DNA of 64,000 nt, taken from contig JBGSLV010000036.1 of NCBI GenBank assembly GCA_041740515.1, positions 4,429 to 68,428 on the forward strand, in the 5' to 3' direction. Of this stretch, positions 25,214-63,601 are shown in pieces. A model generated the notes under the pieces. It was given only the letters and a program-made list of their open reading frames with translations, was not told the DNA's origin and searched no databases. The number at the start of each line of letters is the position of its first letter. The first letter of the stretch is position 1. A program made the position numbers and the translations under genes. The DNA comes from Bdellovibrionales bacterium (GTDB taxonomy: Bacteria; Bdellovibrionota; Bdellovibrionia; Bdellovibrionales; UBA1609).

Positions 25214-25216
25214 TTT

Positions 25217-44232: not shown

Positions 44233-44317
44233 AATGATCCTTCCATGCTATTTATCGAGAAAACAGTAGGTACTCTTGATGTAGTATCAGGGTTTCTAAA
44301 CTATAGACTTGTTTTAT

Positions 44318-44342
44318 TTTTTAAGATTTTCTTAAGATTTCA
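44318..44342 (-). promoter_or_regulatory. conserved intergenic element, copy A (TTTTTAAGAT-ttt-CTTAAGATTTCA)
   Basis: 22 of 22 nt identical, apart from a 3-nt indel, to copy B at 60830-60851. Lies about 85-110 nt upstream of the PEGA/TPR lipoprotein start. Confidence 0.35.
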
Positions 44343-44462
44343 GATTCTTAAATATGCATTTTTTGTATTGAAAAAATTAAGCCTTAAATTGAAACAAATA
44401 AGACTTAAGTCGTGCAAAAACAATACTTCGTTAAATTTAATATGGCCGATAATTGCATTGAT

Positions 44463-47400: not shown

Positions 47401-50400
47401 TAATTGACAAATGGACCATCAAAAGAATTGGCTCTGGCTATGACATAGTCTTGCGCGCCAGCTACAGCATTCCAAGATAGTTGCAAACGATCCGATTGAG
47501 GAGCCATTGCAAAACCAGTTATAGGTGCATTTCTAAATCCAACAGTATTTGTAGGAGCTGTCTCATGACTTCCCCAAACCGCTGTGATTCGAAAAAAATT
47601 CATACCAGTTAATAAAGGTGCGGAACTCATAAATGTAGTGTTAATATTTTGGACAAAAGTAAATGGTCCAAGTTCATTGGCGGATCGGTACAATCTGAAA
47701 TTATTAAAATGTGAAGGTGATATCCAATCCAGCTGAACTCTATTATCTGCAGCAATGAAATTTAAAATCAAATTTCCCGGCGCAGATGGATTAACGTTTG
47801 CTCTTGCCGCTTTGATAGCAGTTGGATAACCGACGTAAATTTTATCGCCATCGATATCAAAAAGATAAGCTTGAACATAATAATAAGCCCCATCCATATT
47901 GGCTGTAGGATCAACCAAAGAACGTGGTGTATAGCCATCCACTAAAACTGAAAAATTTTTGTCAGGGTCTGAAGATTTATATACAGTGTAGAATAAATCC
48001 CCGGAATTGTAGGACCCAAAAGTGCTTGGTGCCGTCCAAGAAAGAATCACTTCGCCATCTCCAGGAGCAAGATTTAATTGTGGCGAATCCGAAGAGTAAA
48101 AACCGACAATATTTGAGCCCCCACTTTCAGAAAGTCCCCATCCTGCTCTGACACGAATGTAATTGATGTTATCATTGCCAAAACCACAATCATCAAATGA
48201 AGCTAAATCAGTAGAACCCATAAGCCCTAAAGAATTTTTTGGAAAGCCTTTATAAACATTAAATGTGTCATAGTAAGAAGATCTGGACCAATTTATTTTT
48301 AAACCCTGACCACCACCGCAACTAGCAATGGCATTAAGTGGAGTGATTGACAATAAGGTCGGAGCACTTGGATTAGCTTTTGGGACAGCTGAAGCTATAT
48401 TAGACTGGGAACTTTCACCGGCAGGATTACTGGCTTTGATTAAATAAAAATAAGTTTGTCCGTTCGACAAACCTGTATCTGCATAAAAAGTTGAAGTCGT
48501 TGTAACTCCTAGATCTGTAAATGGTCCGGCAAATTGTAAAGATCGAAAAATTCGATAAGTGACATTTTCAGGAAATCCACTCCAAGTCAAATTCACTCTT
48601 GAATCACCAACAGTAGTGACCAAATTATTAGAAGCAATTGGTGTTGGAGCTGCAATTGTGATACTAACTTCGGGGGAACTTTGGCTTCGCCCCGTAACAT
48701 TGGATGCAAACACGCGGTAATAATACGTCTCGCCATCAGTAATTTGTAAATCGTTATAGTTATTTCCAATCTGTTGACTGCTTAATACTGTATAAGGGCC
48801 ACCCGACTGGTTTGATCTTTCCACTGTGTATCTAGGAGTGGGATTTGCAAGTCCATCAGGAAGCCAAGACAAATTGACCGAACCATTTACATTGTTACTA
48901 GCCACCAAATTCGCTGGCGGTAAATTGTTATGTGTAAAATTGGTTAAAAATCGGCATGCAGATAAAGTTCCGACTTCATTTATTGTTTGGCCATACAAAG
49001 CCATTGTTGCATTCGGGTTTACTTGTATTGGCACACCAGTGGTTGTCAACAGAGTGGGATTTGCGGAAGTGACTAAACTTGTGCAGATGGAATTAGCATA
49101 AATACTTAAGTTAACTCGATTCATAAAATCTGGACTTAATGTGTAAGACCCAAACAGTCTAATCTCTTGGTTATAAGACGGAGAAGTAGGTGTAGTGCTT
49201 TGAAAGACAGGTGCGGCAGGTACAAGAATATTGTAAGTGTAAAAAGTTAAAAGCGTACAATTACTTTCATTACCTGCCGCATCGAAGGCTTTAGCATAGA
49301 TGGAAGTTTCAGCGTTGATATTCACATCAATCGTTATTCCTGTTGCATTAAATTGATTTGGTGTACCCTCACCCAGTTTTGTTACACAGGAGTCACTGTC
49401 AAAGAATTCAACTCTTGAAGGTGGCAACTGACTGGCTGGATTATCTAACACATCCCCTGAAATAGTCGGTGTCGAGGATTGATTGTTTGGTGAAATGGGA
49501 GCAATCCCGCTGTATGTTGGATTTACTGGAGACACATTATTATGAATATAAGTCGTTAAAAAAACACAAGCTGAAAAGTTACCGTAAATATCAACAGCGC
49601 GAGCAAAAAGCTGAGTGGTCGAATTTAAAGGCAAATTAGCAACAACTCCCGATGCTGTATATTGCCCTCTGGAAGCTGATGCAATCTGTGTGGTACAGGT
49701 TGGGTTGGTAAAAATCCGTATCGTTTCAATTGTAGGATCAGCTGTTCCTAAGATAGCAGGAGTACTAGAAAATCTTGAAGGCGAAGCAGGTACTGTGAAA
49801 GCAAATGTAGGATTCGGCGCAGGCACACTTGAATGTTCATAACTGGCATGGAAGGTACAATCGGACATATTACCTTCAAGATCAGAAACGCGGACGTAGA
49901 TGGGAGTGGTCGAATTGGTATCTAAGTTTAGCAAAATACCATTCACTTCATAATCATCGATATCCCCTTGACCCACACTGACAGTGCATAATTCATCTTT
50001 ATAGAAAAACAAATTTACTGTTCGAGCTGCCGCTTGCCCGATGATCAAAGGAGTTGTTGTTAAATTCGTAGGCGAAAGCGGATCTGTTCTATTAAACACT
50101 GGGTTTTCAGGAGGTGTAGTATTATGAATATAACTTGTTAAAAATGTGCAGTCCGAGCCATTATCAGAGCTATCAAAAGCTCGTGCGTAAATATTGGTTG
50201 TGTCATTGCTGCGTACATTTGTAACGGCACCAATTCCAATAAAATCAGGACGATTTCCAAAACCGATAGTGTTTAAACACAAAGCCGAATCATAAAAAAT
50301 AATCTCATCTGTATCGCTACTTGCCGAACCAAAAATTCTTGGCAAAGTCTTTTGGTTTGTGGGCGACATGGGACTTGCCCCTAAATATCCAAGAGCAGCT

Positions 50401-51350
50401 GGGGGTAAATTGTCATGAGTGTAAGTGGTAAATAAAGCGCATACGGATGGGGCTCCCATCCCATCAACGGATCTTGCATAAATAACTGTGGTTGCATTTT
50501 CAGGCAAAGTTACATCAAAGCCTGCCGTCTCAAAGTCACTGGGATCACCCGAAACCAAAAGGTTCATACAACCAGAATCTGTGTACAACGAAACTGTGAC
50601 TGAACCCACCGAGGTTGTACCTCTTATATTAGGCGCAAAAGAAGCTTTTGAAGGTGACAAAGGTGTAATGGCTAACAATTCAGGAAAGGGACTATTTACA
50701 TTTGAATGCGTAAAATCTGTCATGTAAACACAGCCCGACAATGTGCCAATAGGATCTCTGGTTCTTGCATAAATAGATGTTGTTTGGTTTAAAGGAAGCT
50801 GCACAGCTATGCCAGATTGCGCAAAATTACTTGCTGACCCCGAAGCTAAAGCTTGTGTGCAAATAGCGTCACTAAAAAATTCAACCGTTGACGACAATGG
50901 CAGTGCCTGCCCAAACAAACCCGGAGCCGTAGTAAATCTTGAGGGTGATTGGGGCGATATGGCAGTAAAAATTGGCTCCCCAGGAACTAAAGGGTCATGA
51001 CTAAAGTTTTCAAGCAGCAAGGTACATGTATTTAAAGCTTGCGATTTCACATAAAAATCAGTGGGCACGTTCACCGGAATTTGAACTAAAATTCCCGAAC
51101 TATTAAACTGCGCTACAGTAGCTTGGCCTACACTTACAGTTTGACATAAGTTATCTGTATGTACGGTGAGCAGGTCTAAATTCAAATAATCACTTGAAGT
51201 AACGCCAATAAGTCTTATTTGGGCCAAGACACTTGTGTAATCAATAAGTTGGCTAGAAGTCAGCGATACACTTAAATCTTCAGAAGAGTTTACACGCTCA
51301 CCATCAGCACAAGAAACTTGTAGCCCAAAAGCAAACAGTAATATTAGCAA
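44463..51350 (-). CDS. giant surface lipoprotein (about 2295 aa): 8 two-Cys Ig-like modules, 12 FN3 domains and a C-terminal triple module of unknown fold
   Basis: LLFAFGLQVSC lipobox-like N-terminus. About 98-aa modules follow the pattern SP.SP....P.I.G.......V.F..D..C.......F...G..V.L..N.TT.IYAR..D..GN.S.C...T.Y.H. The FN3 units follow V.L.W......Y.[VIL].RS...GP[YF].........Y.D......Y[YF]Y.V. The annotated start is TTG and is uncertain. Confidence 0.85.
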   Translation of the reverse strand: MLILLFAFGLQVSCADGERVNSSEDLSVSLTSSQLIDYTSVLAQIRLIGVTSSDYLNLDLLTVHTDNLCQTVSVGQATVAQFNSSGILVQIPVNVPTDFYVKSQALNTCTLLLENFSHDPLVPGEPIFTAISPQSPSRFTTAPGLFGQALPLSSTVEFFSDAICTQALASGSASNFAQSGIAVQLPLNQTTSIYARTRDPIGTLSGCVYMTDFTHSNVNSPFPELLAITPLSPSKASFAPNIRGTTSVGSVTVSLYTDSGCMNLLVSGDPSDFETAGFDVTLPENATTVIYARSVDGMGAPSVCALFTTYTHDNLPPAALGYLGASPMSPTNQKTLPRIFGSASSDTDEIIFYDSALCLNTIGFGNRPDFIGIGAVTNVRSNDTTNIYARAFDSSDNGSDCTFLTSYIHNTTPPENPVFNRTDPLSPTNLTTTPLIIGQAAARTVNLFFYKDELCTVSVGQGDIDDYEVNGILLNLDTNSTTPIYVRVSDLEGNMSDCTFHASYEHSSVPAPNPTFAFTVPASPSRFSSTPAILGTADPTIETIRIFTNPTCTTQIASASRGQYTASGVVANLPLNSTTQLFARAVDIYGNFSACVFLTTYIHNNVSPVNPTYSGIAPISPNNQSSTPTISGDVLDNPASQLPPSRVEFFDSDSCVTKLGEGTPNQFNATGITIDVNINAETSIYAKAFDAAGNESNCTLLTFYTYNILVPAAPVFQSTTPTSPSYNQEIRLFGSYTLSPDFMNRVNLSIYANSICTSLVTSANPTLLTTTGVPIQVNPNATMALYGQTINEVGTLSACRFLTNFTHNNLPPANLVASNNVNGSVNLSWLPDGLANPTPRYTVERSNQSGGPYTVLSSQQIGNNYNDLQITDGETYYYRVFASNVTGRSQSSPEVSITIAAPTPIASNNLVTTVGDSRVNLTWSGFPENVTYRIFRSLQFAGPFTDLGVTTTSTFYADTGLSNGQTYFYLIKASNPAGESSQSNIASAVPKANPSAPTLLSITPLNAIASCGGGQGLKINWSRSSYYDTFNVYKGFPKNSLGLMGSTDLASFDDCGFGNDNINYIRVRAGWGLSESGGSNIVGFYSSDSPQLNLAPGDGEVILSWTAPSTFGSYNSGDLFYTVYKSSDPDKNFSVLVDGYTPRSLVDPTANMDGAYYYVQAYLFDIDGDKIYVGYPTAIKAARANVNPSAPGNLILNFIAADNRVQLDWISPSHFNNFRLYRSANELGPFTFVQNINTTFMSSAPLLTGMNFFRITAVWGSHETAPTNTVGFRNAPITGFAMAPQSDRLQLSWNAVAGAQDYVIARANSFDGPFVNYDVASTATYQDTAVNVNTGYYYRVRARFSDLTEGQSSQVVLGQITTSTLPSNISLTVLGDTFMRVDWPSVPATTSYRVERALNIAGPYTIATTTATNTATIFGLNPQSLYYIRVVAIVAGVPQTSPVAQAWTFMPASAPSGITGNNQVTLSWTPMAGAIDYDIERSTDGSTFSAISTNYAMTNFTDNTASNGNVYFYRIKTNYPPLQLLSPISVGFSPGRIPLSPVQLHAENTGSGNDVNLTWTDVSGRTSFNIYRSTTSGVYGAPIQNTTSSSGTIVSGLVAGTTYYFRVTALNGFNESAPSNEVMIQSEMSTPKPDVQFNTTTSIGISWASVVNANTYNLYRSTNAVNFELIASGLPTTSYVDASIAPAQTYYYQYQAIAINGSEMATSLISDPVNVSIRPQTPVGLNLASQSTNSVELYWPNVPSIASYELLRSVNSGGPYSVIATLPPATTEYLDTTVIPGDSYFYVLRTVNSSGVISNNSNQVSVLLVSGPTNLTAVNGTSAVELNWDVIPSVTQYEVLRSESSSGPYGVVQTSVTTSALDSNVVAAVTYYYAVRGVYANGRRSVSSNTVSIIRDGSLRFQVPIELTDLAIASSGSNNIAFNRTLTTFDTNDYDGVTGLEFEVIGTNFDTTARSVGIVNESDVMMDFITIPANTFEPTVFKSPITINSGAQKLRLELEQTTSDGQLSVYSAKLLVNQVNATKTKIYYPLLSSDESPINVDADVFAYSTSDTVYHDFPQASLFTRRALSLDKIIEYNAWELETLISTVNGAEGILGLYNNNTSQLVAMTETRFSGPGVIITSIPFNEGVLQFRGVNEGHNYRLVLRCEYYCSTGSVRIHKAGLWVKLRNLSKTSLVYRIGSLNRMIGVETILTYQRAIFDRSQFTNPKVYYQVTADTDSLSQGSVDLMYHSASSGNLGLNLVTGSQIFINPATLNNYRSPEIVGLPINEKFVSRVSPSQGQITIRSSQILVESGP

Positions 51351-51392
51351 CCAAACACGTTCCAGAATAACTTCCTTAATAGTAAATTTTTT

Positions 51393-54300
51393 TTATTGAC
51401 CTAGAAACACTTTAATGAGCGCCTCCGAATCATCTAAAATGGTTATATCCAAAATTTGATCATTATTTAAATCATCGACAGCAATATGACTTGCATTCAC
51501 ACCCGTATTAATACTAGATATAGTTGCATAGTTGCCGGTTGGTGAACCAAACAAAATGGTTAGGTTTCGTTGCATACCATTGCCAACAATAATATCTTCT
51601 CGACCATTTCCGTTCAAATCACCTTTAGCCAGTGAAGTAGGTTCAATACCTGCTGAAAAATGATTGGCTGGATTAAAAGTTCCATCGCCTCGACCTTTTA
51701 AAATACTTACCGAAGATGATATGTTATTTGATACGGCTAAATCTAAGAAACCATCCGAATCAAAAAAACCAGCAATGATACCATTGGGGCCTGATTCAAC
51801 ATCAAAGTCTGCTGTTTGAAAGGTGCCATTGCCATTGGATAAAAACACTGTGACGGAATCATCGGACTGATTTACAACAGCCACATCCAAAACGAAATCT
51901 TCATTAAAATCACCAGCGGTAATATGTGAGGGTTGTGCTCCTGAAACTGAAGTTGTTCTTGGGCCAAATGATCCATCTCCTTGCCCAGGAAGAAAGTTCA
52001 TGCGATTTGCCCCACTGCAAGTTACGGCAACATCCATTAGACCATCGTTATTAAAATCTCCATGAACTATAGATGTGGGTTGTGAATGTACGGGATAACT
52101 TCCACCTGAAGCAAAAACACCGCCCCCTTGCCCCATAAAAACCCGCACTGAGCTTGCAGCATTAAGCACAATCACTAAGTCTACTAAACCATCGTTATTT
52201 AAATCTACAAAATCGGCATCAGTAGGACTATTGCCAACGTTTAAAAATCCAAGAGAACTAAACAAACCATTTCCTAAACCTTTGTGAAGAGTTATGGAAT
52301 TTGCGGCACGATTGACAACTGCTTTATCCAAAAATCCATCATTATCCAGATCATGACTGATCACTTTTACGGGTGTATCTGACACTGAGGTTAAAAAACC
52401 AAGTATTCCATCTGTTTGACCCGGTAAAATTTGAATTTTAGTTTCCCCATTAGAAACAATCAGTAAGTCCTGAAGCATATCCTGATTAAAATCTGAAGCC
52501 ATTATGTTGATGGGATTTGATAAAGTATTAATAGATGGTCTGATATCAAATGTCCCGGTATTCAAGCCGTAAAAAATTGAAAGCGTGCTATCGCCAACAT
52601 TAGCTATCGCTAAATCAATAAAGCCGTCGGCATTCAAGTCCTTAGCACTTAGAGCAATTGGCGTCAGCCCTACACTTGTAATATCCGGAATATCAAATGT
52701 TCCATCATTTAAGTTTAGAAATACCGAAATATTATCACTCCCACTATTTGTGACAATAATATCTTGAAAAAGATCACCGTTTAAACGAGCCATGGTAACA
52801 CTTGATGGGGCCACACCTGTGCTGTAAATCACTTGTGATGAAAAACCACCACTGCCATTATTAATATAAACACTCATCGTATCATCAGATGCGTTGATAA
52901 CAGCTAAATCTTCAAAACCATCGTTATTTAAATCACCTACCGCAACTTTTGTGGGTAGAGATCCAGAAGGATAAATAGTGGGTGAGTCAAAAGTGCCATT
53001 ATTATTTCCAAATCTTATTGCAATGTTGTTAGAAGCTCCATTGACTATCACAATATCTTTATCGCCATCATTGTTAAAATCACCAATGGCTACATCAACT
53101 GGTAAAGTTTCAAGGGGATCTTGCAAAGTATTTACGGCCGCACTGAAAGAACCATTGCCAACTCCAGCTAAAAATGAAAATTGCCCAGTCCCATTACAAA
53201 CTAAAATTAAATCTTTATTGGTGTCATTATTGAAATCCGCAAACGCCATGCCCGAAGGGCCGCTGCAAAGACCAGTTAGTTTGGACTGTGTGGTAAAAAG
53301 TCCGTTGCCTCGTCCCAAAAATCTAGAAATGGTAGCTTCACTTTTGTTTAAAACAAAAATATCATTGAAACCATCATTATTAAAATCACCAACCAAAGTA
53401 TTTTCGGCACCACTACCCACATTATAATTCAAATCAAAAGCTCCTGAATTTCTACTTTGACTTGATAATAAAAAGCGAGCTTTACTTAATCCTGAAGCAA
53501 CCACATCGGGTAGAGTTCCAATTAGGGGTAAAACAGAAACATAGGATCTTGCTGCATTATACCCTTGAAGCACCGATACCGTTGCCGTTCCTGATGCATT
53601 CGTGCGACGTTCTGAAGGACCAATGATATGAACATCCCCAGCTGTTCGTTGGAAGAGGACTGGATAATTTGATACGCCATTACCAAAACGATCTACAACT
53701 CGTATACTAATAGGTTCAGAAAAACTTTGCCCGATAAATGCGGACTGATTATTTCCACTAAGAGTAGGAAACTCAAAATGATCAGCGACATCTGCTAAAA
53801 CTTGAATGTTTATCTGTTGTGAAAATCCTTGGTTGTCAGTCACAGTTAAAACATCGGTGACGCCAGCTCGGGATCCCGCCGTATAAGTACTGGTGCTTGA
53901 ATTGTAATTCGCTGTCAGCGAATTATTTTGCGTTAACACAACCGTATATGGTGCTGTCCCGCCGGTGATATTAAAAACTTCACTTTGGCCAACAACGATC
54001 TGTGGATCATTTGGGATTACGCTTAATGACTGTTTTTGCCAAACTAAATTTAAGCTGGCTTGATTACCCGCTAGATCGGTTTGTCTGATTTCAATATTGT
54101 AATTGCCGTCAGCAAATTTAGGTAAACTTATACTAAATGTCGAATTGGAACATGTCGTAGAACCTGTACCATCATTGGCTAAACTAACCAAAGCGCCTGT
54201 TTCACAGCCCCCTTGAATATTGAGTACAGCCTCGCTAGAGCTATGTGGGTTACTGGGAGGATAAGTTAAAGAAGGTTGAGAGACGCTGGTTTTTCGATAC

Positions 54301-54671
54301 CAAATAAAACTCACTGGGGCTGAAATGTTTCCCATATCATTTTGAGTTAGAAAATAATTATAAACGCCATCGGTCGTTTGGCTTAGCGCAAAAGAAAATT
54401 CAGAGTTGGAGCATATCGTTGAGGCGATCGAGGCTCCAGAGAGAGAAATTAAACTCCCCGATTTACAAAGTCCTTGAATTGATAAAGTACTTCCTTGCGA
54501 GTAATAAGGGTTTTGTGCAGGAATACTTAAAACAGGTACTTCTATATCGGGACCATTGTTAGAGCTTTGAACATTAAGATTTTGTTTACAAGATATAAAA
54601 TTAATAACAGCAAAAAATGCTGTTATTAATTTTATAATTTTAAAACTAAAGTCAACGTTCCCTATATTCAT
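51393..54671 (-). CDS. lipoprotein with two-Cys Ig-like modules, Big-like domains and about 14 FG-GAP/VCBS repeats (two integrin-alpha-like propellers)
   Basis: Lipobox FAVINFISC. GDFNNDGFNDIFVLN-type Ca-binding FG-GAP loops repeat about 14 times. The N-terminal modules contain IRQTDLAGNQAS, like the repeats of the 10924..16419 protein. Confidence 0.85.
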   Translation of the reverse strand: MNIGNVDFSFKIIKLITAFFAVINFISCKQNLNVQSSNNGPDIEVPVLSIPAQNPYYSQGSTLSIQGLCKSGSLISLSGASIASTICSNSEFSFALSQTTDGVYNYFLTQNDMGNISAPVSFIWYRKTSVSQPSLTYPPSNPHSSSEAVLNIQGGCETGALVSLANDGTGSTTCSNSTFSISLPKFADGNYNIEIRQTDLAGNQASLNLVWQKQSLSVIPNDPQIVVGQSEVFNITGGTAPYTVVLTQNNSLTANYNSSTSTYTAGSRAGVTDVLTVTDNQGFSQQINIQVLADVADHFEFPTLSGNNQSAFIGQSFSEPISIRVVDRFGNGVSNYPVLFQRTAGDVHIIGPSERRTNASGTATVSVLQGYNAARSYVSVLPLIGTLPDVVASGLSKARFLLSSQSRNSGAFDLNYNVGSGAENTLVGDFNNDGFNDIFVLNKSEATISRFLGRGNGLFTTQSKLTGLCSGPSGMAFADFNNDTNKDLILVCNGTGQFSFLAGVGNGSFSAAVNTLQDPLETLPVDVAIGDFNNDGDKDIVIVNGASNNIAIRFGNNNGTFDSPTIYPSGSLPTKVAVGDLNNDGFEDLAVINASDDTMSVYINNGSGGFSSQVIYSTGVAPSSVTMARLNGDLFQDIIVTNSGSDNISVFLNLNDGTFDIPDITSVGLTPIALSAKDLNADGFIDLAIANVGDSTLSIFYGLNTGTFDIRPSINTLSNPINIMASDFNQDMLQDLLIVSNGETKIQILPGQTDGILGFLTSVSDTPVKVISHDLDNDGFLDKAVVNRAANSITLHKGLGNGLFSSLGFLNVGNSPTDADFVDLNNDGLVDLVIVLNAASSVRVFMGQGGGVFASGGSYPVHSQPTSIVHGDFNNDGLMDVAVTCSGANRMNFLPGQGDGSFGPRTTSVSGAQPSHITAGDFNEDFVLDVAVVNQSDDSVTVFLSNGNGTFQTADFDVESGPNGIIAGFFDSDGFLDLAVSNNISSSVSILKGRGDGTFNPANHFSAGIEPTSLAKGDLNGNGREDIIVGNGMQRNLTILFGSPTGNYATISSINTGVNASHIAVDDLNNDQILDITILDDSEALIKVFLGQ

Positions 54672-54729
54672 ATTTTAAATTGCAAATTCCTATTTCATAG
54701 TAAAAAGTTAAACCCTCAACAGTTAAAAT

Positions 54730-57700
54730 CTATTTCGGAAATCGTGTCATACGATTGCCATTTTTGTCTGTGACATATAAAAAGTGGTCGTCTCCAAACA
54801 TCATACCCAAAGAGTCATTAAATTTACCCAAAGTAGATCCACTAGAGACTCTTCCGCCTTGACACCATCCGGGTGTCAAATCTGATGACCCAGCACAGCC
54901 TGGATCGCCACCACTGGTTGGGAATGAAGCTTGAATGCCACCTTTCCAACCTACAATAGTTCCTGTGGTTTTATCCATTTTCCATATAGCAGCGCCATTG
55001 CCACTTCCACATGTGTTGGCATTCATACCGTAAATAAAATTTGAATCAACCCATACACTCACTGGCATTGAGCAGTCTAGACCATTACCAATATTGGCAA
55101 TGTTAGCAGCGGCACTTTGCCACGTGTTAACGTACATATCTTGTCGTGTGCTAGTGGATTCCACCAACACGCCACCAAAAGTGTATTTGTCGATACGGAT
55201 ATTTCTAGTATTGGTGATGTATAAGTGCGAACCGTCTGTGGCTATTCCACCTCGATCATAGTTACCCCAATCAAAGTTAAAACCACCACCACGATCATTT
55301 CTATAACTCGCTAAAGAGGCCGAACCACCTAAGCACCATCCTGCCACGGATACCACATAGTTGCCATTACTTGCTGTTGTACAACCTGGATTTGGCGCTG
55401 AACCCACTCGACCAATCCAACCATTGAAATTTCCCGTAGCCGCATTATAGGAGGACACACGGTGATTTCTTGTATCAACTACATATAAATTCCCACCATG
55501 GAAGACAATAGCTGTGGGTTGATACATTTGACCATCCCCATTACCTTCTCGGCTAAGTCCACCTAAACACCAACCCGGAGTAAAAGAGTTCACTCCAGCG
55601 GCTGTACATCCAGGATCGCCACCGGTTGGAATATTAGCCACAGAATTTCCAATGCGACCAATCCATCCCCCATAAGCACCAGTATCAAGATTGAACCTTT
55701 GAATTCGATGTAAACTAAAATCAGTTACATACAACCATGTGCCATCAGTGGTTAAACCGTGGGGTCTTTGCATTATACCATTAACGTTGGAAGCAATTAA
55801 GTTTTGATCACCCCATGTGAAAGACGGATAATTACTGGCTCCTAAACACCAACTCGGTGATGGCCCCATAGCATTGGCCGCTAAACAGGAAGCTGGATTT
55901 TGTCCTCCCGTAGCGGTCGAGGTCATAGCTCCGATCCAACCTATTAATTCCCCAGTGCGTTTATTAAATTTTTTAACTCTAGAGCCATCCACTTCGGCCA
56001 TAAACAAAAAATCACCCACAATAAGTGAACCCATAGGATTATAAGTCGAATAGTCATCAAAGCCATGAAATTCCACTCGTGCTTGTCTGTCAGAAGACCA
56101 TGATCTTGGACTGATGCTCTCTAGACCAATGCTGCCTTGATAATTACCTGTGCTAACGCTGAATTTTTTAAGCATAGGAAAGCGTCGACTGATGGTCACA
56201 AATGAGCCTGAACCATCTAAAGCAAGGCCCCAATTATCCAAGAAAGAAGTTTCATCTAAACCTGGTTTGTAGGTTCCACCCAAGCACCATCCCGGTGTGT
56301 TTTGATTTGACGCCAACGAGTTACAGCCTGCATTACCACTCATGCCTGAAGGGTTGGCGACTTTCCCCATCCAAGATTCTATGAGGCCAGTTGCACCAAC
56401 TTTTAAAATACGCTCATCATCGGCCACATAAAAGAATGATCCATCAAAATCCATTGCAATAGGATTGTTCCAATTGAAACTTAAATTGGCTAATCGTTGG
56501 ATAAAGGCACCAGTATCAATATTATATCTATTGATCACACCACCATCACCACTATTTAGGACGTATAGGTTTGTGCCACTGATAACCATGTCACGGGCTT
56601 CACGAACACCACCTTGCACCCCACTTTGGGATTGAGCATTGGAATATAAAAACTCACCACCAAAACACCAACCTGGAGTCCGTTGACCTTGTGGAGTTGA
56701 AGTACAACCTACGGCTCCCCCAGTTGGAGTCACGTTAACAATACCTAACCAACCTTGAAAGGCCCCTGTGGCTTTATTATATCTTAAAACAGCACCAGAA
56801 ACGCCTACATACATGAATACAGAATCTACTTTTACACCGTTGGGGTTAATCATACGCCCATCACCGATTCGACTGTTTCCAGTATCAAGGCTTCCACCTC
56901 GACACCAACCCGGTGACACTGTACTTGTTGAAGTGTTACAGCTTCCAGGACCACCCGTTGCCGATCCACTTGGAGCTGTTGTACCTATCAGACCAATCCA
57001 CCCTTCGAATTCACCGGTATCAATACGGTGACGAGAGACTGAATTTGTATTTGAACTTGAAACATAAATGTAAGTATCATCGGCTGTAATGCCCCATGGA
57101 TTACTAAATCCCCCAGTTGATTCAGTACCATTGATTGACAATCCACCCACACACCATCCTGGCAATGGCTGATCATTGCCGGTTCCAACGCATAATGCAC
57201 TGCTTGGAATCGATTGCGCACTTCCAGATGGTCCTATACCGTTCTCGCGGCGCATACGCCCAATCCATCCACGATACTCTAATGATTGGTAGTCGTACTT
57301 GATCACACGGTTGGCATCATGATCTGCTACAAATAAGAACTGTTTATTTGGCGAAAAAGCTATATGATTCGCACCACGAATTCCATCATATCGTGCGGCA
57401 ACTGGTTTTACGCCCATTCTAAAAGGCAATAAATTTCCATTTGAATCTGTCTGAGTTGAAGCAGTTCCAACCCAACCTAAATCGCCAAGAACAGCCCATG
57501 CTTGTGTAGCAGCTGTTAAAACTCCAGCACTATGAGTCGCCGTCAAAGTTAAACTTGTTTCAGGAAACTGCCCTTTAAAGTAAAACTGTCTTGAGCTTTG
57601 ACCTGAAATAAAAGTTGTAGATGTAATGATTGCGGTACAATTATTATCGCTATAAAAAGCCCCTGAAATTCCTGCCCCAGATAAATTAGCTTGGGTTGTT

Positions 57701-60591
57701 GCCACCACCGGAGCCACTGTTCCTACACCGTCTAAAGTTTCTAGAACAAATGGTCCTCGACACTGGCTAGTTAAAGAACTTACTGGCAACACAGGAGGTG
57801 TTATACGAAACGCAGATGGGCTGATCGTTAATGTTCGAGTACTAGACTGGGTCATTCCCAAGGCCACATTCGAAATAAAAATATTTAAAATCTCAGCCTG
57901 GTTACCACGGAAATATACGGGTGTTGATCCCGATCCATTCGGCATAGTGATTGTCGTATTAGACCCACCACCTGTGCATGACGAAGATGTGTAAAATCGG
58001 CCAGTGGTTGATACTCCCTGTACACCGTTGATGGTTAGATTTAAATTTTGATGTGCAGGAACAACATTATTTAAAGTGTCTCGAAGACTTACCGTAAATG
58101 CAGTTGAACATTGACCTGCGACAACGCTTGATGGTCCTGTATAATTAATTCTTGAAGCTAAAACTTTAATCTCTTGCGGCAAGGACACCGTAGTAATTAA
58201 ACCATTTGGATCAGCGGCGTTAACCATTAAATTTTCACCCACAGGATCTCTTAAATAAACAAAAGTATTTGAATTTGGCGCGGCCCCTAAACTCATTGGA
58301 AAACTTGTAGCCGTAATCGCCGTTGTACAAGTATCATCAGAAAAAAGCGTGGCACTTGACCCTAATATACCAGACATAGCTATATTAATTGTTCCAAAAA
58401 CTTGTCCTTGGGTGTCGTCCTCTGCAAGGGGTGAAATCACAATTCGAGTTGAACATTGTCCAGATAGAACCGTCAGCAATGTTCCTGGGGCTGCAGGAAT
58501 AGCAGCTTCAGCCAATAAACGAATTTTACTTGGTGTGATATTCAAAGCGTAGTTTGCCGCTGTTAAAACAGATGAAGAGTCAGAGACTGCAATATTTAAA
58601 GCCAATGATTTATTATTTTTTAAATAAAGAATTTTAGTGTTTTGTCCTGTACTGAATAGAACATTGGTACTTAGTGGTGCGCCCCCACATGTGTTGCTAG
58701 AGTAAAAACTTGAAGTCCCATGACCAGAGATTTGCACGGTTGTATTACCAGTGGCGTTGGCTAAATTGCCTCCTAAATCGCGAAGCTGTATTAAGATCTG
58801 ATCACTACACTGTCCCGATCGAACTTCACTAGGACCTGATACTGTAATGACTCTTGGTATGCCGGCTGTAATGTTAAAGTTATTACTTGTTGCTGGAGTT
58901 AAAACTCCAGAATTGGCGACCAAACGATAGTTGGTACCTGTTCTATCAATACCTAAATCATTAAACTGAGCAATCCCATTAACAGCGACCACAGGATTTG
59001 TTCCGGTAAGTATTGCACCATTAACGTTATTCGAAATTGTTAAAGCAATTGATGACGAAGCTTGTGCACCTGTGGTGATAAGATTGCCCTGGGCATCTTG
59101 AACTGCAAGTTGAATTGGGTTCATACTTGCCAGACCTGCAGGGGAAGTTTGTGGCTGTGCTAAAAAAGCCAATCGAGCAGGAGGCCCCGCTTTGAACGGA
59201 GCTAAAACTTGTATGGCATTAAGACCCGAGGGTGAAGTGATACTTAAAACTCTTGCCGGTGTTGTATCTGCAATTGAAGTTGAAATAGAACCAGTTGTGA
59301 CTCCCGTTGCATCGGTGTTTAACGAGGGCTGTGTTATCGAATCACCCACAATGTTCGAAGAAAATTGCGGTCTAATTCCTGAAACGGGGTTTCCAAAAGA
59401 ATCACGAAGCGTAAAAATCACTTGATAGGAATCCGAGCCATTGGCAATCAAAGCTTCAAACGGAGGAATAATGGCTGGATTAATTGTTAGTGTACTTAAA
59501 GTCGGCGAAACGTTTCCTGGTGTTATATTAAATTGGCTAGAGTCAACAACCATCTCTGGACTACCAAAAGGTAAACCTGAGGTATCAGCTTTACGTGCCG
59601 ATATTATTTTTAATCCCGACTCTTCAAAATTAATTCCAGTGAATGTGGCAACTCCCGCCACAGCATTGATGGCAAATGTTCCACCAACACTTCCGCTGGA
59701 GGGGGATGTCGGTGCGATCTCTAAAGTGATAAGAGCCGTGGCATCAGGTCCCCCTGAAACAATATTACCATTTTCATCTAAAACTCGTACTACAGGCTGT
59801 TGAGTTAATATTTGTCCCGCTTGAGCATTTCCAGGTTGGGTTGCAAAAACTAAAGATTCAGCTCGACCCAAAGCTGTAAAGGTCACAATTTGATTATTAT
59901 TATCTTCAATACCATCAACGGAAACAGCAACACGGCAATTATAAACTGTGTTTGTAACTAAGCTTGTGATTGGCACGCTTGTCAAAGTGATATCTGTAAG
60001 TGTGCTAACTAAACTGAATTCAGTTGCTGCAGCGGTTTTACAATAGACGCTAACTGCTGTGGCTTCACCGGATGTAGCAGGACTAAAATTTAAAATAGCT
60101 TCAGTGCTACTTACTACAAGTGCATTGGTTGCACCCCCATAAGCAATACCTGGAAGATCATTTTCATTTATGTCTTCCATATCTCGATCATCAACAGCTT
60201 TGACTCGAAATTGGTAAACTCTATTTCTATTTAAGCCTGAAATAATGGTTGAAGACACGTTGCCAACTTCTCGTTTAATTTCTGGGAAGGAAGGTAAAGT
60301 TGTATCGTAGATGCGATAACCTGTTACTCTTGTGCTTGAAGATTGAGTCCAAGTGATTCGGACCGAAGAGTCTGATAAAGTTTGGACTGTGGCAGCTCCG
60401 GTAAAGCCACCAAATGTTGTATCCCCATCAATGATAGCTTGAGTTAATGACTCTTCAGAAGGCATACATGAAACTACGGCATGAAGAGATAAGACTAATA
60501 TTAATCTTAAGAAATTTTTTAAGTGAAACAATCTATTAAGATTTGCTGCTTTATAATTATAAACTTGTAAAATGGCTTTTACATGTTTCAT
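54730..60591 (-). CDS. giant surface lipoprotein (1953 aa): 2 FN3, Big/invasin-like Ig domains, 4 two-Cys domains, and about 10 NHL-like beta-propeller blades carrying a GWIG...C...PGWCxGG insert
   Basis: Start set at ATG 60591 after GGGAGAG (MKHVKAIL...LILVLSLHAVVSC lipobox). NHL-like strands: HGLTTDGTWLYVTDFSLHRIQRFNLDTGAY and PTAIVFHGGNLYVVDTRNHRVSSYNAATGNF. The ORF track's extra 35 N-terminal codons are unlikely to be translated. Confidence 0.85.
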   Translation of the reverse strand: MKHVKAILQVYNYKAANLNRLFHLKNFLRLILVLSLHAVVSCMPSEESLTQAIIDGDTTFGGFTGAATVQTLSDSSVRITWTQSSSTRVTGYRIYDTTLPSFPEIKREVGNVSSTIISGLNRNRVYQFRVKAVDDRDMEDINENDLPGIAYGGATNALVVSSTEAILNFSPATSGEATAVSVYCKTAAATEFSLVSTLTDITLTSVPITSLVTNTVYNCRVAVSVDGIEDNNNQIVTFTALGRAESLVFATQPGNAQAGQILTQQPVVRVLDENGNIVSGGPDATALITLEIAPTSPSSGSVGGTFAINAVAGVATFTGINFEESGLKIISARKADTSGLPFGSPEMVVDSSQFNITPGNVSPTLSTLTINPAIIPPFEALIANGSDSYQVIFTLRDSFGNPVSGIRPQFSSNIVGDSITQPSLNTDATGVTTGSISTSIADTTPARVLSITSPSGLNAIQVLAPFKAGPPARLAFLAQPQTSPAGLASMNPIQLAVQDAQGNLITTGAQASSSIALTISNNVNGAILTGTNPVVAVNGIAQFNDLGIDRTGTNYRLVANSGVLTPATSNNFNITAGIPRVITVSGPSEVRSGQCSDQILIQLRDLGGNLANATGNTTVQISGHGTSSFYSSNTCGGAPLSTNVLFSTGQNTKILYLKNNKSLALNIAVSDSSSVLTAANYALNITPSKIRLLAEAAIPAAPGTLLTVLSGQCSTRIVISPLAEDDTQGQVFGTINIAMSGILGSSATLFSDDTCTTAITATSFPMSLGAAPNSNTFVYLRDPVGENLMVNAADPNGLITTVSLPQEIKVLASRINYTGPSSVVAGQCSTAFTVSLRDTLNNVVPAHQNLNLTINGVQGVSTTGRFYTSSSCTGGGSNTTITMPNGSGSTPVYFRGNQAEILNIFISNVALGMTQSSTRTLTISPSAFRITPPVLPVSSLTSQCRGPFVLETLDGVGTVAPVVATTQANLSGAGISGAFYSDNNCTAIITSTTFISGQSSRQFYFKGQFPETSLTLTATHSAGVLTAATQAWAVLGDLGWVGTASTQTDSNGNLLPFRMGVKPVAARYDGIRGANHIAFSPNKQFLFVADHDANRVIKYDYQSLEYRGWIGRMRRENGIGPSGSAQSIPSSALCVGTGNDQPLPGWCVGGLSINGTESTGGFSNPWGITADDTYIYVSSSNTNSVSRHRIDTGEFEGWIGLIGTTAPSGSATGGPGSCNTSTSTVSPGWCRGGSLDTGNSRIGDGRMINPNGVKVDSVFMYVGVSGAVLRYNKATGAFQGWLGIVNVTPTGGAVGCTSTPQGQRTPGWCFGGEFLYSNAQSQSGVQGGVREARDMVISGTNLYVLNSGDGGVINRYNIDTGAFIQRLANLSFNWNNPIAMDFDGSFFYVADDERILKVGATGLIESWMGKVANPSGMSGNAGCNSLASNQNTPGWCLGGTYKPGLDETSFLDNWGLALDGSGSFVTISRRFPMLKKFSVSTGNYQGSIGLESISPRSWSSDRQARVEFHGFDDYSTYNPMGSLIVGDFLFMAEVDGSRVKKFNKRTGELIGWIGAMTSTATGGQNPASCLAANAMGPSPSWCLGASNYPSFTWGDQNLIASNVNGIMQRPHGLTTDGTWLYVTDFSLHRIQRFNLDTGAYGGWIGRIGNSVANIPTGGDPGCTAAGVNSFTPGWCLGGLSREGNGDGQMYQPTAIVFHGGNLYVVDTRNHRVSSYNAATGNFNGWIGRVGSAPNPGCTTASNGNYVVSVAGWCLGGSASLASYRNDRGGGFNFDWGNYDRGGIATDGSHLYITNTRNIRIDKYTFGGVLVESTSTRQDMYVNTWQSAAANIANIGNGLDCSMPVSVWVDSNFIYGMNANTCGSGNGAAIWKMDKTTGTIVGWKGGIQASFPTSGGDPGCAGSSDLTPGWCQGGRVSSGSTLGKFNDSLGMMFGDDHFLYVTDKNGNRMTRFPK

Positions 60592-60829
60592 CTTTACTCT
60601 CCCGCTTACGTACAAATTCTTTAACAAAATTGAACAGATATTTATCGTCATGTTATATAAAGTCCTGCAGATTCTAAGAGGACATAAGTGTTTCAATTTA
60701 AGAATAGACTAAATTTTAAGACCAAAGTTCAGAAAACAAATCTTAAGATTAGGTTAAAGGATAAATCTTCATCACTCATCCAACGTAGTGGATTTAAGTG
60801 TATCAAAATAAGAATTTATTATGTTCTGA

Positions 60830-60851
60830 TTTTTAAGATCTTAAGATTTCA
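60830..60851 (-). promoter_or_regulatory. conserved intergenic element, copy B (TTTTTAAGAT-CTTAAGATTTCA)
   Basis: Same element as 44318-44342. Lies about 240 nt upstream of the 1953-aa lipoprotein start, in a 342-bp intergenic region that also holds the palindrome AATCTTAAGATT (60739-60750). Confidence 0.35.
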
Positions 60852-60933
60852 TGCAGAACACATTTTGAAAATGCACAAAAATATCCTTTTGAGACACTAA
60901 GATTTGTAAACATTAAGACACTATAGATTGGCT

Positions 60934-62043
60934 TTAAAAACTTAAAGCTACATAGGCATTGAACTGGTCTGTGTTTATTTTTTCAAGGGTATCGGTAAAT
61001 CTGTGGCTTGAGTATGAAAACCCATACTGTACTCTTCGAAGATTGTTTAAATTTTGGGTTAAATCCAAACTTAATTTTAAGGATCTTTCGCTAATAGGCT
61101 CCGAAAAATCATATGGTCTATAACTAATTTCAGCTCCGTAACTGATATCACTGTCACGATAGAATTCGGTTCGTAAACCCAAATCAAAGCCATATAAACC
61201 CGAAAATCCAAAAGGTGCACCTAAGGAAAAAAGGTTTATCGTGCCGCCGCCCAAAGTAATACGACTTCGATATTTAGGATTACGCACCAATGGGATTAAG
61301 TAACTTAAACCTACCCTGCCCTCAAAAAACTGTGGGTTTTCCTCCACTGGGGATGACGTATAGGTGAACAGTGTCAATAAAGCATCTGCAAAGTATCCCA
61401 ATTTATACCCTTTTTCAGGAGATGTGTACTTGGCTCCAACGAGTAAAGCTTGGGATACAAAAGTTCCAAATGAACTTTGACGATAGATCAAATACGAATG
61501 CCCAATGGAAAAAAATACCGAGTCAAAAACATTGGCCATTTTATACTCCCTAGCTTCAGGAGCAAAAAGATACAAGGTTTCACCAACTCGTTCATTCTTT
61601 GGTCCAACCGCTGTCAGATATAGCGTGCTAATTCTAGATCTAAGATAAGCGTAAACGACGTATTCACCTTCGACATCTGACTTCCGAACAGGTTCCTTAT
61701 CACTCAAAAAGATTTTCCATCCGGGTTTATTATACTTAAGTTTAAGCTTTACCATGGGTCTAAAGTTTTCACCCTGAGGCACCAAATAAACTGGAACTTT
61801 ATCAGTTTCTAATATTAAATCTTCAATACTACTGCTGCTTGTTTTATCTCTTAGAATGTGGGCTATCCAAAGCGCTTGTTTGGATTTATAAACTTCTCTA
61901 TCTTCAGGGGTGATCTGTTTGGAATTATTTGGTGTTATAGGCTTAGCAGCATCTATGGCTGGAACAGCATCTGGTTTAGACACTCCCTCAGCCAAGACGT
62001 TTTGTAAATGGAGCATCAGTGCAAATAGCAGCAAAATTTTCAT
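60934..62043 (-). CDS. outer-membrane protein: periplasmic N-domain plus C-terminal beta-barrel (369 aa)
   Basis: Signal peptide MKILLLFALMLHLQNVLA (start moved to ATG 62043). The C-terminal half has alternating aromatic/Gly strands and ends ...NAYVALSF with a terminal Phe. Confidence 0.6.
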   Translation of the reverse strand: MKILLLFALMLHLQNVLAEGVSKPDAVPAIDAAKPITPNNSKQITPEDREVYKSKQALWIAHILRDKTSSSSIEDLILETDKVPVYLVPQGENFRPMVKLKLKYNKPGWKIFLSDKEPVRKSDVEGEYVVYAYLRSRISTLYLTAVGPKNERVGETLYLFAPEAREYKMANVFDSVFFSIGHSYLIYRQSSFGTFVSQALLVGAKYTSPEKGYKLGYFADALLTLFTYTSSPVEENPQFFEGRVGLSYLIPLVRNPKYRSRITLGGGTINLFSLGAPFGFSGLYGFDLGLRTEFYRDSDISYGAEISYRPYDFSEPISERSLKLSLDLTQNLNNLRRVQYGFSYSSHRFTDTLEKINTDQFNAYVALSF

Positions 62044-62146
62044 ACTTTTAAGGTTCTCAAATACTAAGACTTCTGACAATGAATATCAGCGAGATGAATA
62101 AGTAATTAACCGAAATAGTCTAAAATAGTTTTGACAGGTGTATATA

Positions 62147-63496: not shown

Positions 63497-63601
63497 AGAG
63501 GCTAAAAAAGGTATAAAATTCTCTACAGTTTTTTGAGCATTTACAGGCTCTATACATGCAGCTTTGACCGCACTAAGGTCCTTGGTTTTAAAACCTAATA
63601 A

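Follow-up and report, generated by a model that had tools for sequence, protein, structure and literature searches.

Analysis of the window, the whole 64,000-nucleotide stretch of contig JBGSLV010000036.1 from a Bdellovibrionales bacterium, revealed on the minus strand a gene for a 1953-aa lipoprotein, of which positions 54733-57510 encode the C-terminal 926 aa, together with three conserved neighbours. The gene and its neighbours are as follows.

60934..62016, minus strand: upstream conserved neighbour, 360 aa from ATG, with a signal peptide, an N-terminal beta domain and a 10-stranded outer-membrane beta-barrel, ending in ..YVALSF
54730..60591, minus strand: target gene, 1953-aa lipoprotein with two fn3 domains, an Ig-like (Big_1 / invasin-D3-like) stalk and a double NHL propeller
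60466..60591, minus strand: signal peptide and lipobox (..LHAVVSC) of the target, with Cys at residue 42 followed by MPSEE
51393..54671, minus strand: downstream conserved neighbour, 1092-aa FG-GAP/VCBS-repeat lipoprotein, 58 nt past the target stop codon
44463..51350, minus strand: next conserved neighbour, an fn3-rich giant of 2295 aa whose N-terminus is lipobox-like, 42 nt past the FG-GAP gene

The stop-to-stop open reading frame of the target extends over 54730..60696 on the minus strand, with a TTG at 60696, and the start codon is probably the ATG at 60591, giving 1953 aa. The predicted signal peptide (..LILVLSLHAVVSC) ends in the lipobox VVSC and agrees with the pattern used, [LVI][ASTVI][GAS]C, indicating that the target is a lipoprotein with a predicted lipid anchor at Cys 42. 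An equivalent Cys after a hydrophobic stretch was found in 15 of 15 orthologs, 11 of which fit the pattern (e.g. LTAC, LISC, LASC, LLGC, VAGC, LSGC), and in most of these orthologs the lipobox-type L/V-x-[GAS]-C is followed by [LMV]P[ST/Q]E. Reasoning on Lol-type sorting of the lipoprotein is borrowed from E. coli. Orthologs of full length measure ~1930-2040 aa (L001-L031). The stalk of the target consists of two fn3 and about eight Ig-like domains; Big_1 (31.7 bits, Pfam cutoff 34.9) and Invasin_D3 (21.9 bits, cutoff 33) both scored below their cutoffs in the target and were listed hits in several of its homologs.

The order barrel, target, FG-GAP lipoprotein and fn3 giant is kept in about 24 loci, some of them with identities as low as about 30%, and the wider neighbourhood also holds a TPR lipoprotein as well as membrane or outer-membrane proteins. 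Short paralogs occur in tandem arrays. The gaps of only 58 nt and 42 nt suggest that the target, the FG-GAP gene and the fn3 giant are co-transcribed. A promoter and terminator scan of 44000-63600 returned sites no more frequently than in shuffled sequence and is uninformative on the operon, and Rfam gave no match in the window. A Slam-like surface-lipoprotein translocon, which is 14-stranded, was considered for the upstream barrel and rejected since the model, with its 10 strands, looks like OmpT and OpcA.

The AF2 model of the C-terminal region (pLDDT 88.6, pTM 0.90) contains 12 four-stranded blades according to DSSP, and a blade-core HMM likewise gave 12 blades, so that the count of about 10 in the initial annotation has to be raised; its description of the blades as NHL-like agreed with Pfam, AF2 and Foldseek. 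The NHL repeat PF01436 scored 39.9 bits in the window protein (cutoff 20), one of the repeats being significant by itself; the relatives P0006, a stand-alone paralog, and P0008 reached 289.7 bits (11 repeats) and 251.4 bits (10 repeats). Foldseek aligned the Thin NHL propeller with TMt 0.83 over 458 query columns, that is, half of the query; the best structural matches were the NHL domains of TRIM proteins, which are non-enzymatic, and tandem YWTD propellers of the LRP6 E3E4 type were also among the matches. As modelled, the region is thus composed of two tandem, ordinary six-bladed NHL beta-propellers, each with six four-stranded antiparallel blades superposable on solved NHL domains.

57466..57477, minus strand: N-terminal strand GWVG (DSSP strand 12-15), carrying the D-strand motif
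56044..57378, minus strand: propeller 1, blades 1-6, residues 45-489 of the 926-aa region (DSSP, blade-core HMM, six-bladed NHL matches)
54733..56043, minus strand: propeller 2, blades 7-12, residues 490-926 of the 926-aa region (DSSP, blade-core HMM)

Since blade 12 has just three C-terminal strands and DSSP places a strand at 12-15, the GWVG strand probably supplies the missing fourth strand of this blade and would close the ring as a velcro. The repeat period is ~78 aa, compared with ~40-45 aa and a short Gly-rich D-to-A connection in NHL proteins, because most blades are extended by a Cys-paired insert of ~30 residues (8 of the 12 blades in the target, 10 of 12 in both P0006 and P0008). 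The long period marks a variant of the NHL family and does not exclude the region from the NHL fold. Tandem Repeats Finder detected no DNA-level repeat for the blades, and the blade duplications are therefore old.

The motif GW[IL]G..C..[PSA][GS]WCxG[GA] recurs eight times in the C-terminal 926 aa. The ending [GSA]WC.G[GA] occurs eight times, compared with a mean of 0.006 and a maximum of 1 when these 926 aa were shuffled 20,000 times. All eight endings read in the initial annotation are present (PGWCVGG, PGWCRGG, PGWCFGG, PGWCLGG twice, PSWCLGA, AGWCLGG and PGWCQGG), and upstream of each lie GW[IL]G, SWMG or GWKG and one further Cys. A full insert follows 8 of the 12 blades and is absent after blades 4, 6, 10 and the closing blade 12. 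The inserts and the related linkers are as follows.

57142..57270, minus strand: insert 1, after blade 1, GWIGRMRRENGIGPSGSAQSIPSSALCVGTGNDQPLPGWCVGG; long first loop with low pLDDT of 49-69
56893..57003, minus strand: insert 2, after blade 2, GWIGLIGTTAPSGSATGGPGSCNTSTSTVSPGWCRGG
56656..56754, minus strand: insert 3, after blade 3, GWLGIVNVTPTGGAVGCTSTPQGQRTPGWCFGG
56275..56376, minus strand: insert 4, after blade 5, SWMGKVANPSGMSGNAGCNSLASNQNTPGWCLGG
56044..56127, minus strand: Cys-less linker after blade 6, joining the propellers, with the family-conserved Trp W471 (the SW of ..PRSWSS..)
55837..55941, minus strand: insert 5, after blade 7, GWIGAMTSTATGGQNPASCLAANAMGPSPSWCLGA
55558..55668, minus strand: insert 6, after blade 8, GWIGRIGNSVANIPTGGDPGCTAAGVNSFTPGWCLGG; pLDDT 93-97 throughout
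55324..55422, minus strand: insert 7, after blade 9, GWIGRVGSAPNPGCTTASNGNYVVSVAGWCLGG; short first loop, C-x15-C, extra hairpin
55009..55074, minus strand: alternative Cys pair between the end of the linker joining blades 10 and 11 and the B-C loop of blade 11 (CSMPVSVWVDSNFIYGMNANTC)
54853..54951, minus strand: insert 8, after blade 11, GWKGGIQASFPTSGGDPGCAGSSDLTPGWCQGG

In the DSSP assignment of the model, every insert follows strand D of its blade and precedes strand A of the next one. Propeller topology puts all inserts of one propeller on the same face and would make the loops co-facial within each propeller, a point raised in the initial annotation. Seven of the eight inserts have a pLDDT of 84-97 and are thus modelled as ordered. 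Across the family the insert takes the form of ~30 residues reading GW[I]G-x-[IV]-x-T-S-P-T-G-G-x-x-G-C-x11-W-C-x-G-G, with two Trp and two Thr near-invariant in every copy and with charged residues and Asn, Gln and Asp almost absent; the Cys pair and the near-invariant aromatic pair reported before were in this way recovered as a Cys-paired module with two near-invariant Trp. Regular members of the family carry a near-identical insert on every blade (KIATSPTGGAAGCNGAAVGTFTPGWCTGG), in 10 of 12 blades compared with 8 of 12 in the target, and the sixth linker is Cys-less both in the consensus of the family and in the members inspected. The relative P0031 is devoid of the loop and yet retains GWIG....GW[QH]xG, and the module therefore most likely originated when a hairpin of ~20 residues, rich in Gly, Ala, Ser and Thr, was inserted between two Trp that were already in place. 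A conserved module recurring on every blade would be expected of repeated ligand sites and of a purely structural brace alike.

Analysis of 802 inter-blade linkers from 80 relatives indicated that the cysteines come and go in pairs: two Cys were present in 644 linkers, none in 137 and one in 18. For 16 of the 16 checkable cases among these 18, a compensating Cys was found in blade 11; all 16 are twelve-blade proteins in which the single-Cys linker is the one between blades 10 and 11 and the core of blade 11 holds exactly one Cys, the arrangement also seen in the target. The Cys count is even in 56 of 59 12-blade regions, and all Cys of the mature lipoprotein lie, by position, in local pairs. 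The spacing is C-x10-15-C in the target and C-x12-C in 449 of 592 canonical family copies. By residue number within the 926-aa region, the pairs of the target are C107/C120, C191/C203, C269/C282, C396/C409, C542/C555, C635/C648, C710/C726 and C872/C883 in the inserts, and C813/C834 for the alternative pair. Cys columns have an entropy of 0.03 bits across 23 orthologs, and dN is 0 at the anchor positions of the insert. Strict pairwise presence or absence, the invariance of the Cys, the export of the protein and the high pLDDT of the inserts are strong, if indirect, signs of pairing, from which we infer that the Cys of each pair form a putative disulfide that would tie the middle of the hairpin to its C-terminal base.

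The initial annotation had described the loop as hypervariable in sequence and length and had read the region as a scaffold presenting a diversifying recognition loop on every blade. In the target the eight loops do differ in sequence, the length of the first loop varies between 9 and 22 aa, and the inter-Cys loop shows the lowest identity in the closest ortholog pairs (68% versus 80-86% for strands). Column entropy across the 23 orthologs is nevertheless 1.47-1.48 bits for the insert loops, close to that of strands (1.36) and below that of B-C loops (2.14) and of other linkers (1.88). Length varies much only before the first Cys, loop length is fixed in most family copies, and Cys-Cys spacing is nearly constant. 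The identity from blade to blade is 36% for the insert versus 32% for the NHL core in the target and 73% versus 57% in P0006, and is at least that of the core in 10 of 10 proteins tested. The dN/dS comparison of loop with scaffold revealed no sign of diversifying selection: loop dN is 0.12-0.25, far under dS, with pS saturated at about 0.7 even in the closest orthologs (78-81% amino-acid identity), so that dN and identity by partition are the interpretable quantities. The display of variable loops is contradicted by entropy, blade-to-blade identity, the near-identical inserts of the family and low dN; it is largely refuted at the species level and we regard it as most improbable. On the alignments, the inserts are best described as a conserved lineage-specific decoration.

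A search of 1.84 billion protein cluster representatives with the insert profile returned 182 matches, and 133 of 134 newly retrieved hits lie on NHL-type cores. The pattern [NFV]TPGWC[LTK]GG, based on the 7-sequence alignment A2, was used to search genomes and 56 of 60 matches encode relatives, nearly all in Bdellovibrionota MAGs, which makes TPGWCxGG diagnostic for the family. The spread that the initial annotation proposed to trace with a motif HMM is thus narrow. The nearest relatives are from Bdellovibrionales MAGs (81% and 78% identity) and no cultured carrier of the target gene was found. A word-indexed protein search with the insert-only alignment A3 gave 407 candidates, none significant; this result is uninformative, and the question of the spread was settled by the exhaustive HMM search. 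The insert motif was absent from Pfam, NCBIfam, PDB sequences and the literature searched, and literature queries with the motif strings or with Bdellovibrio and NHL retrieved nothing relevant, in agreement with the earlier remark that the combination was not recognised from the described NHL, YWTD and SMP-30 families. By these comparisons the insert is a new motif on the known NHL fold, restricted to a small bacterial lineage.

The reading that we favour, with a probability of roughly 60%, is that of a double NHL propeller head carrying mainly structural, disulfide-braced modules on a surface adhesin that is anchored as an outer-membrane lipoprotein. On each propeller the D-to-A modules would build a conserved crown, braced by disulfides, over the face that usually binds ligands, rigidifying and enlarging that face in an oxidising, protease-rich extracytoplasmic setting; they may contribute to a conserved binding surface and would not display variable loops. 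We think that their main role is structural. The adhesin function, with its surface exposure and ligand, is predicted from the architecture and the neighbouring genes: the double propeller would sit as a binding head at the distal end of a cell-surface adhesin in Bdellovibrio-like, predatory bacteria and probably acts with the two adjacent giant lipoproteins and the outer-membrane barrel.

The same features could also belong to a multivalent lectin-type head. In this case each Trp insert would build a pocket, on its own or together with the adjoining blade, and the up to 10-11 nearly identical pockets would bind a repeating polymer (peptidoglycan, LPS, EPS or a glycan of the prey surface, for example), in the manner of known propeller lectins with one site per blade. 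The near identity of the module on every blade of regular members, the two Trp and two Thr near-invariant in each copy, the position on the conventional binding face indicated by topology, the expansion of the family as tandem paralogs and the weak, sub-threshold matches of the FG-GAP neighbour to propeller lectin models are all consistent with it. The conserved Gly, Pro, Cys and Trp next to Gly nevertheless resemble a folding core and not a pocket, the insert has almost none of the charged or Asn, Gln and Asp residues typical of sugar sites, and similarity to lectin families is absent in Pfam and the PDB, so that we hold the lectin-type head to be possible but on the unlikely side. The larger proposal, that the Cys-stapled Trp modules are up to 10-11 equivalent sites of an undescribed multivalent recognition head of predatory Bdellovibrionota, which in a surface complex of three giant lipoproteins and a barrel would mediate attachment to prey or substrate, is rather unlikely and is put forward as speculation. 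There is also a very slim chance that the region is an extracytoplasmic NHL/SGL-type enzyme (a lactonase, a lyase such as PAL or a phosphotriesterase-like enzyme) with the inserts lining an active-site funnel, as the weak Pfam matches to SGL, Str_synth, Arylesterase and Lactonase and the name 'sugar lactone lactonase YvrE' given to some homologs by JGI might suggest. The SGL match (PF08450, 29.2 bits versus a cutoff of 26.3) is confined to profile positions 100-164, that is, 65 of 246 positions or one blade, and such one-blade coverage suggests that the enzyme-family matches reflect a shared blade motif. The invariant and near-invariant columns all belong to the repeat consensus (G, W, C, T, P; Y/D/N/R of LYVxDxxNxRI) or to the linker Trp; judged from the alignments, no blade-specific His/Asp/Glu/Asn metal-binding set occurs in the 30-sequence A1 or the 7-sequence A2 alignment, and the TRIM NHL domains matched best in structure are not enzymes.

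A location in the periplasm was weighed as well. A lipoprotein signal by itself is no proof of surface exposure, and a TPR lipoprotein with membrane and outer-membrane neighbours is typical of envelope machines; the protein might accordingly be a scaffold on the inner leaflet of the outer membrane, with propellers binding peptidoglycan or envelope partners and disulfides derived from periplasmic folding. About ten Ig/fn3 domains and two propellers would, if extended, exceed the ~25 nm of the periplasm, the architecture parallels that of surface adhesins, and it is more typically surface proteins that expand into tandem paralogs, all of which makes the periplasmic scaffold highly unlikely.

Prey and surface recognition by Bdellovibrio-like predators is partly understood. 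Fibre-type adhesins (PMC10769870) and a MIDAS-family adhesin (PMC11003981) have been described in these predators, and the surface adhesin proposed here would add a candidate of a different kind, a lineage-restricted double NHL propeller encoded in a conserved cluster of giant envelope proteins. The family also offers a clean example of a repeat fold that gained a sub-module per repeat, braced by a putative disulfide, on its move to an oxidising compartment. The established knowledge of NHL propellers is left standing, and the function given here is a prediction.

Comparison with known NHL propellers (PF01436; TRIM71/LIN-41, TRIM2, Brat, NHLRC2) showed that these have a period of ~43 aa while that of the target is ~78 aa, that the Cys-paired D-to-A insert of ~30 residues is absent from all PDB chain sequences, and that the target differs further in having two propellers in tandem, predicted to be extracytoplasmic and lipid-anchored, with GWIG in the D strand. 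The sensor of Mycobacterium tuberculosis PknD (1RWI) is likewise an extracellular NHL domain, but it is a single propeller of ~250 aa with, as judged from its length, short D-to-A turns, and it is attached to a transmembrane kinase instead of a lipoprotein stalk. Matches of teneurin TEN_NHL (PF25021) to the target were confined to blade cores, and neither teneurin NHL nor peptidyl-alpha-hydroxyglycine alpha-amidating lyase (PAL) has the repeated GWIG..C..PGWCxGG module. PAL is a metalloenzyme, whereas no conserved metal-site residues were seen in the alignments of the target family.

Receptors of the LDL-receptor family (LRP6 E3E4) resemble the target, with its predicted surface exposure and putative disulfides, in having extracellular tandem six-bladed propellers with small disulfide-bonded modules; in LRP/LDLR these are Cys-rich EGF modules between propellers of the YWTD blade motif, while in the target the modules are within the blades, and Ldl_recept_b (PF00058) was absent from the window protein at E<=1 and reached E 0.031, below cutoff, in P0006. 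Membership in the invasin/intimin adhesins was considered and found no support, with Big_1 and Invasin_D3 below their cutoffs and a lipoprotein signal in place of the barrel, and the likeness is architectural only. Both share a long Ig-like stalk and a C-terminal globular head; the invasin/intimin anchor is an N-terminal outer-membrane barrel and the head a C-type-lectin-like domain, while in the target these places are taken by a predicted lipid-modified Cys and by the double NHL propeller, respectively.

Analysis of the last 926 residues (54733-57510, minus strand) of the 1953-residue lipoprotein revealed all eight motif endings listed in the initial annotation, with GW[IL]G (in places SWMG or GWKG) and a further Cys ahead of each. 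The pattern [GSA]WC.G[GA] occurs eight times in this region versus a mean of 0.006 in 20,000 shuffles. A blade-core HMM, built and then iterated over the family, identified 12 cores in the target, rather than the ten or so blades counted initially, and likewise in 59 of the 80 relatives; the others have fewer, many of those being truncated sequences. An AlphaFold2 model of the propeller region, built on a 30-sequence alignment, was confident, with a mean pLDDT of 88.6 and a pTM of 0.90, and DSSP resolved 12 four-stranded blades in it, with the following strand motifs:

Strand A: PxGI..D
Strand B: LYVxD
Strand C: RIxRY
Strand D: FxGWIG

Blade 12 has three C-terminal strands only in the DSSP assignment and, since the N-terminal strand GWVG (residues 12-15 of the 926-residue region) bears the D-strand motif, the model makes a velcro closure of blade 12 by this strand likely. 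In every case the insert occupies the connection from strand D to strand A of the following blade; in the target it comes after blades 1, 2, 3, 5 and 7, 8, 9, 11, both halves being patterned alike. Because all D-to-A connections of any beta-propeller lie on one face, conventionally called the "top", inserts within a single propeller must be co-facial. No repeat was found at the DNA level in the propeller region, and for this reason the blade repeats of the target are taken to be old and diverged.

The gene and its N-terminal half are arranged as follows:

54730..60696, minus strand, ORF call of the target
57511-60465, minus strand, N-terminal half of the target: two fn3, Big_1/Invasin_D3-like domains, then four domains of ~116 residues

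The start codon is ambiguous; ATG at 60591, giving 1953 residues, is the most plausible and TTG at 60696 is the alternative. At the N-terminus are a signal peptide and a VVSC lipobox whose Cys is residue 42. A Cys at the equivalent site behind a hydrophobic stretch was present in 15/15 of the full-length ortholog sequences printed, usually followed by [LMV]P[ST]E, while the lipobox pattern itself was matched by 11 of these 15; at the sequence level the lipoprotein assignment is thereby sound. The best match of the target in a word-indexed protein search, among at most 8000 candidates, was 43-45% identical, and the target's own sequence was not among the matches.

The Cys of the insert were described initially as near-invariant, and their columns indeed showed an entropy of 0.03 bits across orthologs and a dN of 0. 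Among 802 inter-blade linkers of 80 family proteins, 644 contained two Cys, 137 none and 18 one. In 12-blade proteins all 16 single-Cys linkers joined blade 10 to blade 11, and in each case the core of blade 11 held a single Cys; the alternative local pair at this position reads CS..NANTC in the window protein. The number of Cys was even in 56 of 59 12-blade regions, the spacing C-x12-C was found in 449 of 592 canonical insert copies, and pLDDT was 84-97 within seven of the eight target inserts. The remaining Cys of the mature protein are also locally paired, in the Ig-like stalk: 184/219 and, about 40 residues apart with one pair in each of the four ~116-residue domains, which Pfam does not recognise, 595/635, 713/755, 828/872 and 944/985 (1953-residue numbering). 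These data fit folding in an oxidising compartment and argue, indirectly but strongly, for a disulfide between the paired insert Cys.

Conservation of the insert was compared with that of the other parts of the propeller region in the window protein and 22 full-length orthologs.

Mean column entropy by class of position
Strands: 1.36 bits
Insert loop 1: 1.47 bits
Insert loop 2: 1.48 bits
Other linkers: 1.88 bits
B-C loops: 2.14 bits

The loop between the anchors had been called hypervariable in sequence and length; its entropy, however, is close to that of the strands and its Cys spacing is mostly fixed. In the closest ortholog pairs (78-81% identity), synonymous sites were saturated (pS ~0.7), and dN was 0.09-0.15 for strands, 0.12-0.18 for loop 1, 0.17-0.25 for loop 2 and 0.15-0.17 for other linkers, a pattern ordinary for surface loops under purifying selection. 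Nor did the comparison between blades favour a scaffold displaying variable loops: in 10/10 proteins tested the insert was no less conserved than the NHL core (36% versus 32% identity in the window protein, 73% versus 57% in P0006, a stand-alone paralog). Regular family members such as P0006 carry a near-identical module on every blade, and the profile of 268 equal-length copies reads G-W-I-G-x-[IV]-x-T-S-P-T-G-G-A-A-G-C-x-G-A-A-V-G-T-F-T-P-G-W-C-T-G-G; Gly, Ala, Ser, Thr and Pro predominate in the insert, which is almost devoid of charged residues. The impression of hypervariable loops arose from the contrast with invariant anchors in a diverged family member.

An insert-less relative, P0031 (719 residues, JGI metagenome), comprises 11 NHL blades; their D strand is likewise GWIG, and their Cys-free linkers of ~23 residues, GG.dGW[QH]xG.aP..G.GD..F, retain the second Trp. 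Since these linkers hold GW[QH]xG, the second Trp and following xGG of the insert would be ancestral. The derived state would have arisen by addition of a hairpin of ~20 residues (..SPTGGxxGCxxxxxGxxTP) between the two Trp, with Cys apparently taking the place of the Gln or His of P0031, and P0031 probably represents the state before insertion of the Cys-stapled loop. The protein P0164 is intermediate, with a shorter loop and C-x9-C.

Pfam and NCBIfam recognised the blade core alone (NHL, blade-sized pieces of SGL, TEN_NHL, SBBP and others) and hold no model covering the insert. An insert HMM found nothing among PDB chains except chance antibody VH matches at E ~0.3, the motif strings were not found in the papers searched, and the literature on Bdellovibrio with NHL yielded nothing relevant, all of which agrees with the earlier remark that the combination was not recognised from described NHL, YWTD or SMP-30 families. 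In the source databases, family members are named "hypothetical protein" or carry generic propeller labels. A degenerate DNA pattern for [NFV]TPGWC[LTK]GG, searched in one genome per species (185,579 species), gave 60 matches, 56 of which encode relatives, at 52 loci. Almost all of these are from Bdellovibrionota MAGs (Bdellovibrionales, Pseudobdellovibrionaceae, Bdellovibrio sp., Bacteriovoracaceae, Oligoflexia), a few carry Myxococcota or Proteobacteria labels, and no cultured isolate was among the matching genomes. The nearest relatives of the target, 81% and 78% identical to it, are from Bdellovibrionales MAGs. An exhaustive HMM search with a 47-position insert profile retrieved 182 matches at E<=1e-3 in 1.84 billion cluster representatives; NHL-type cores were present in 133 of the 134 newly retrieved proteins among the best 150, the exception being a 66-residue fragment, so that within these 150 the module appears on this NHL subfamily only.

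The neighbourhood of the target is organised as follows, the four-gene order being retained in ~24 Bdellovibrionota loci down to ~30% identity, a Bacteriovorax MAG included:

44463-62016, minus strand, conserved four-gene cluster: ~360-residue outer-membrane barrel, target (~1950-residue NHL lipoprotein), 1092-residue FG-GAP/VCBS lipoprotein, 2295-residue fn3-rich giant
44463-51350, minus strand, the fn3-rich giant
41122-44232, minus strand, three genes downstream of the giants: TPR lipoprotein, 588-residue protein, 224-residue protein

The gaps between the three giant genes are 58 and 42 nt, and the cluster has the appearance of an as yet undescribed complex of the envelope or surface. The upstream barrel has an identical copy in NCBI (P0178). 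In the fn3-rich giant, Pfam detected fn3 in two stretches only and gave no match to the C-terminal ~500 residues; by eye, its first ~800 residues contain units of ~85-95 residues with two Cys each and a recurring '...C T/N L L ...'. The TPR lipoprotein (240 residues) is weakly similar to PilW/Tgl-type TPR lipoproteins, the 588-residue protein has a hydrophobic stretch mid-sequence and no Pfam match, and the 224-residue protein, judged by sequence alone, resembles a small outer-membrane barrel; two or three of this trio have homologs near family members at two related loci (L027 and L029).

Elsewhere in the window, a 449-residue ORF (62147-63496, minus strand) has many Cys in recurring contexts (YCF, FCGG, YCRG, ICF, TCT), shows neither signal peptide nor family match, and is not kept beside the cluster in related loci; it may be a repeat protein. 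A 1873-residue giant (10924-16545, minus strand) is a putative surface protein with Big_6, Big_13 and Glucodextranase_B-like Ig domains. An ordinary TonB system cluster (18875-27374, minus strand) encodes a 1197-residue TonB-dependent receptor with a CarboxypepD_reg domain, a TPR protein, TonB, a MotA/ExbB protein and a DUF3450 protein.

A shorter class of paralogs (~900-1300 residues), often extending scarcely beyond the double propeller, lacks the synteny of the target. Three consecutive genes for such stand-alone paralogs are found at one locus (L053, 2156-10832), and at another (L054, 1-10907) one lies two genes downstream of a 581-residue protein with a Peptidase_S74 domain, which occurs in tail-fibre-like proteins.

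The target is an exported protein of lipid-anchor type. Its distal, C-terminal half forms a double NHL propeller, and each propeller bears the conserved, Cys-paired module on one of its faces. We infer that the module forms a hairpin braced by a disulfide and packed by its two Trp; it would enlarge and rigidify the binding face, and the target may be the head of a surface adhesin that acts together with the neighbouring gene products. No catalytic-type residues specific to particular blades were conserved, which argues against a lactonase- or PAL-type enzyme. In the chief rival reading, each module would itself bind ligand and the head would be multivalent and lectin-like; conservation of the module across blades is consistent with this, but the Gly, Pro, Cys and Trp at its conserved positions fit a structural core better.

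Apart from its blade count, the initial description was accurate and the observation is real. The structural part of the initial interpretation was right, and the display of variable loops is unsupported. The significance of the double propeller would rise if the modules are binding sites, or if the four-gene cluster is part of a predatory attachment apparatus. The inserts are a new, lineage-restricted variant of the well-known NHL propeller fold.
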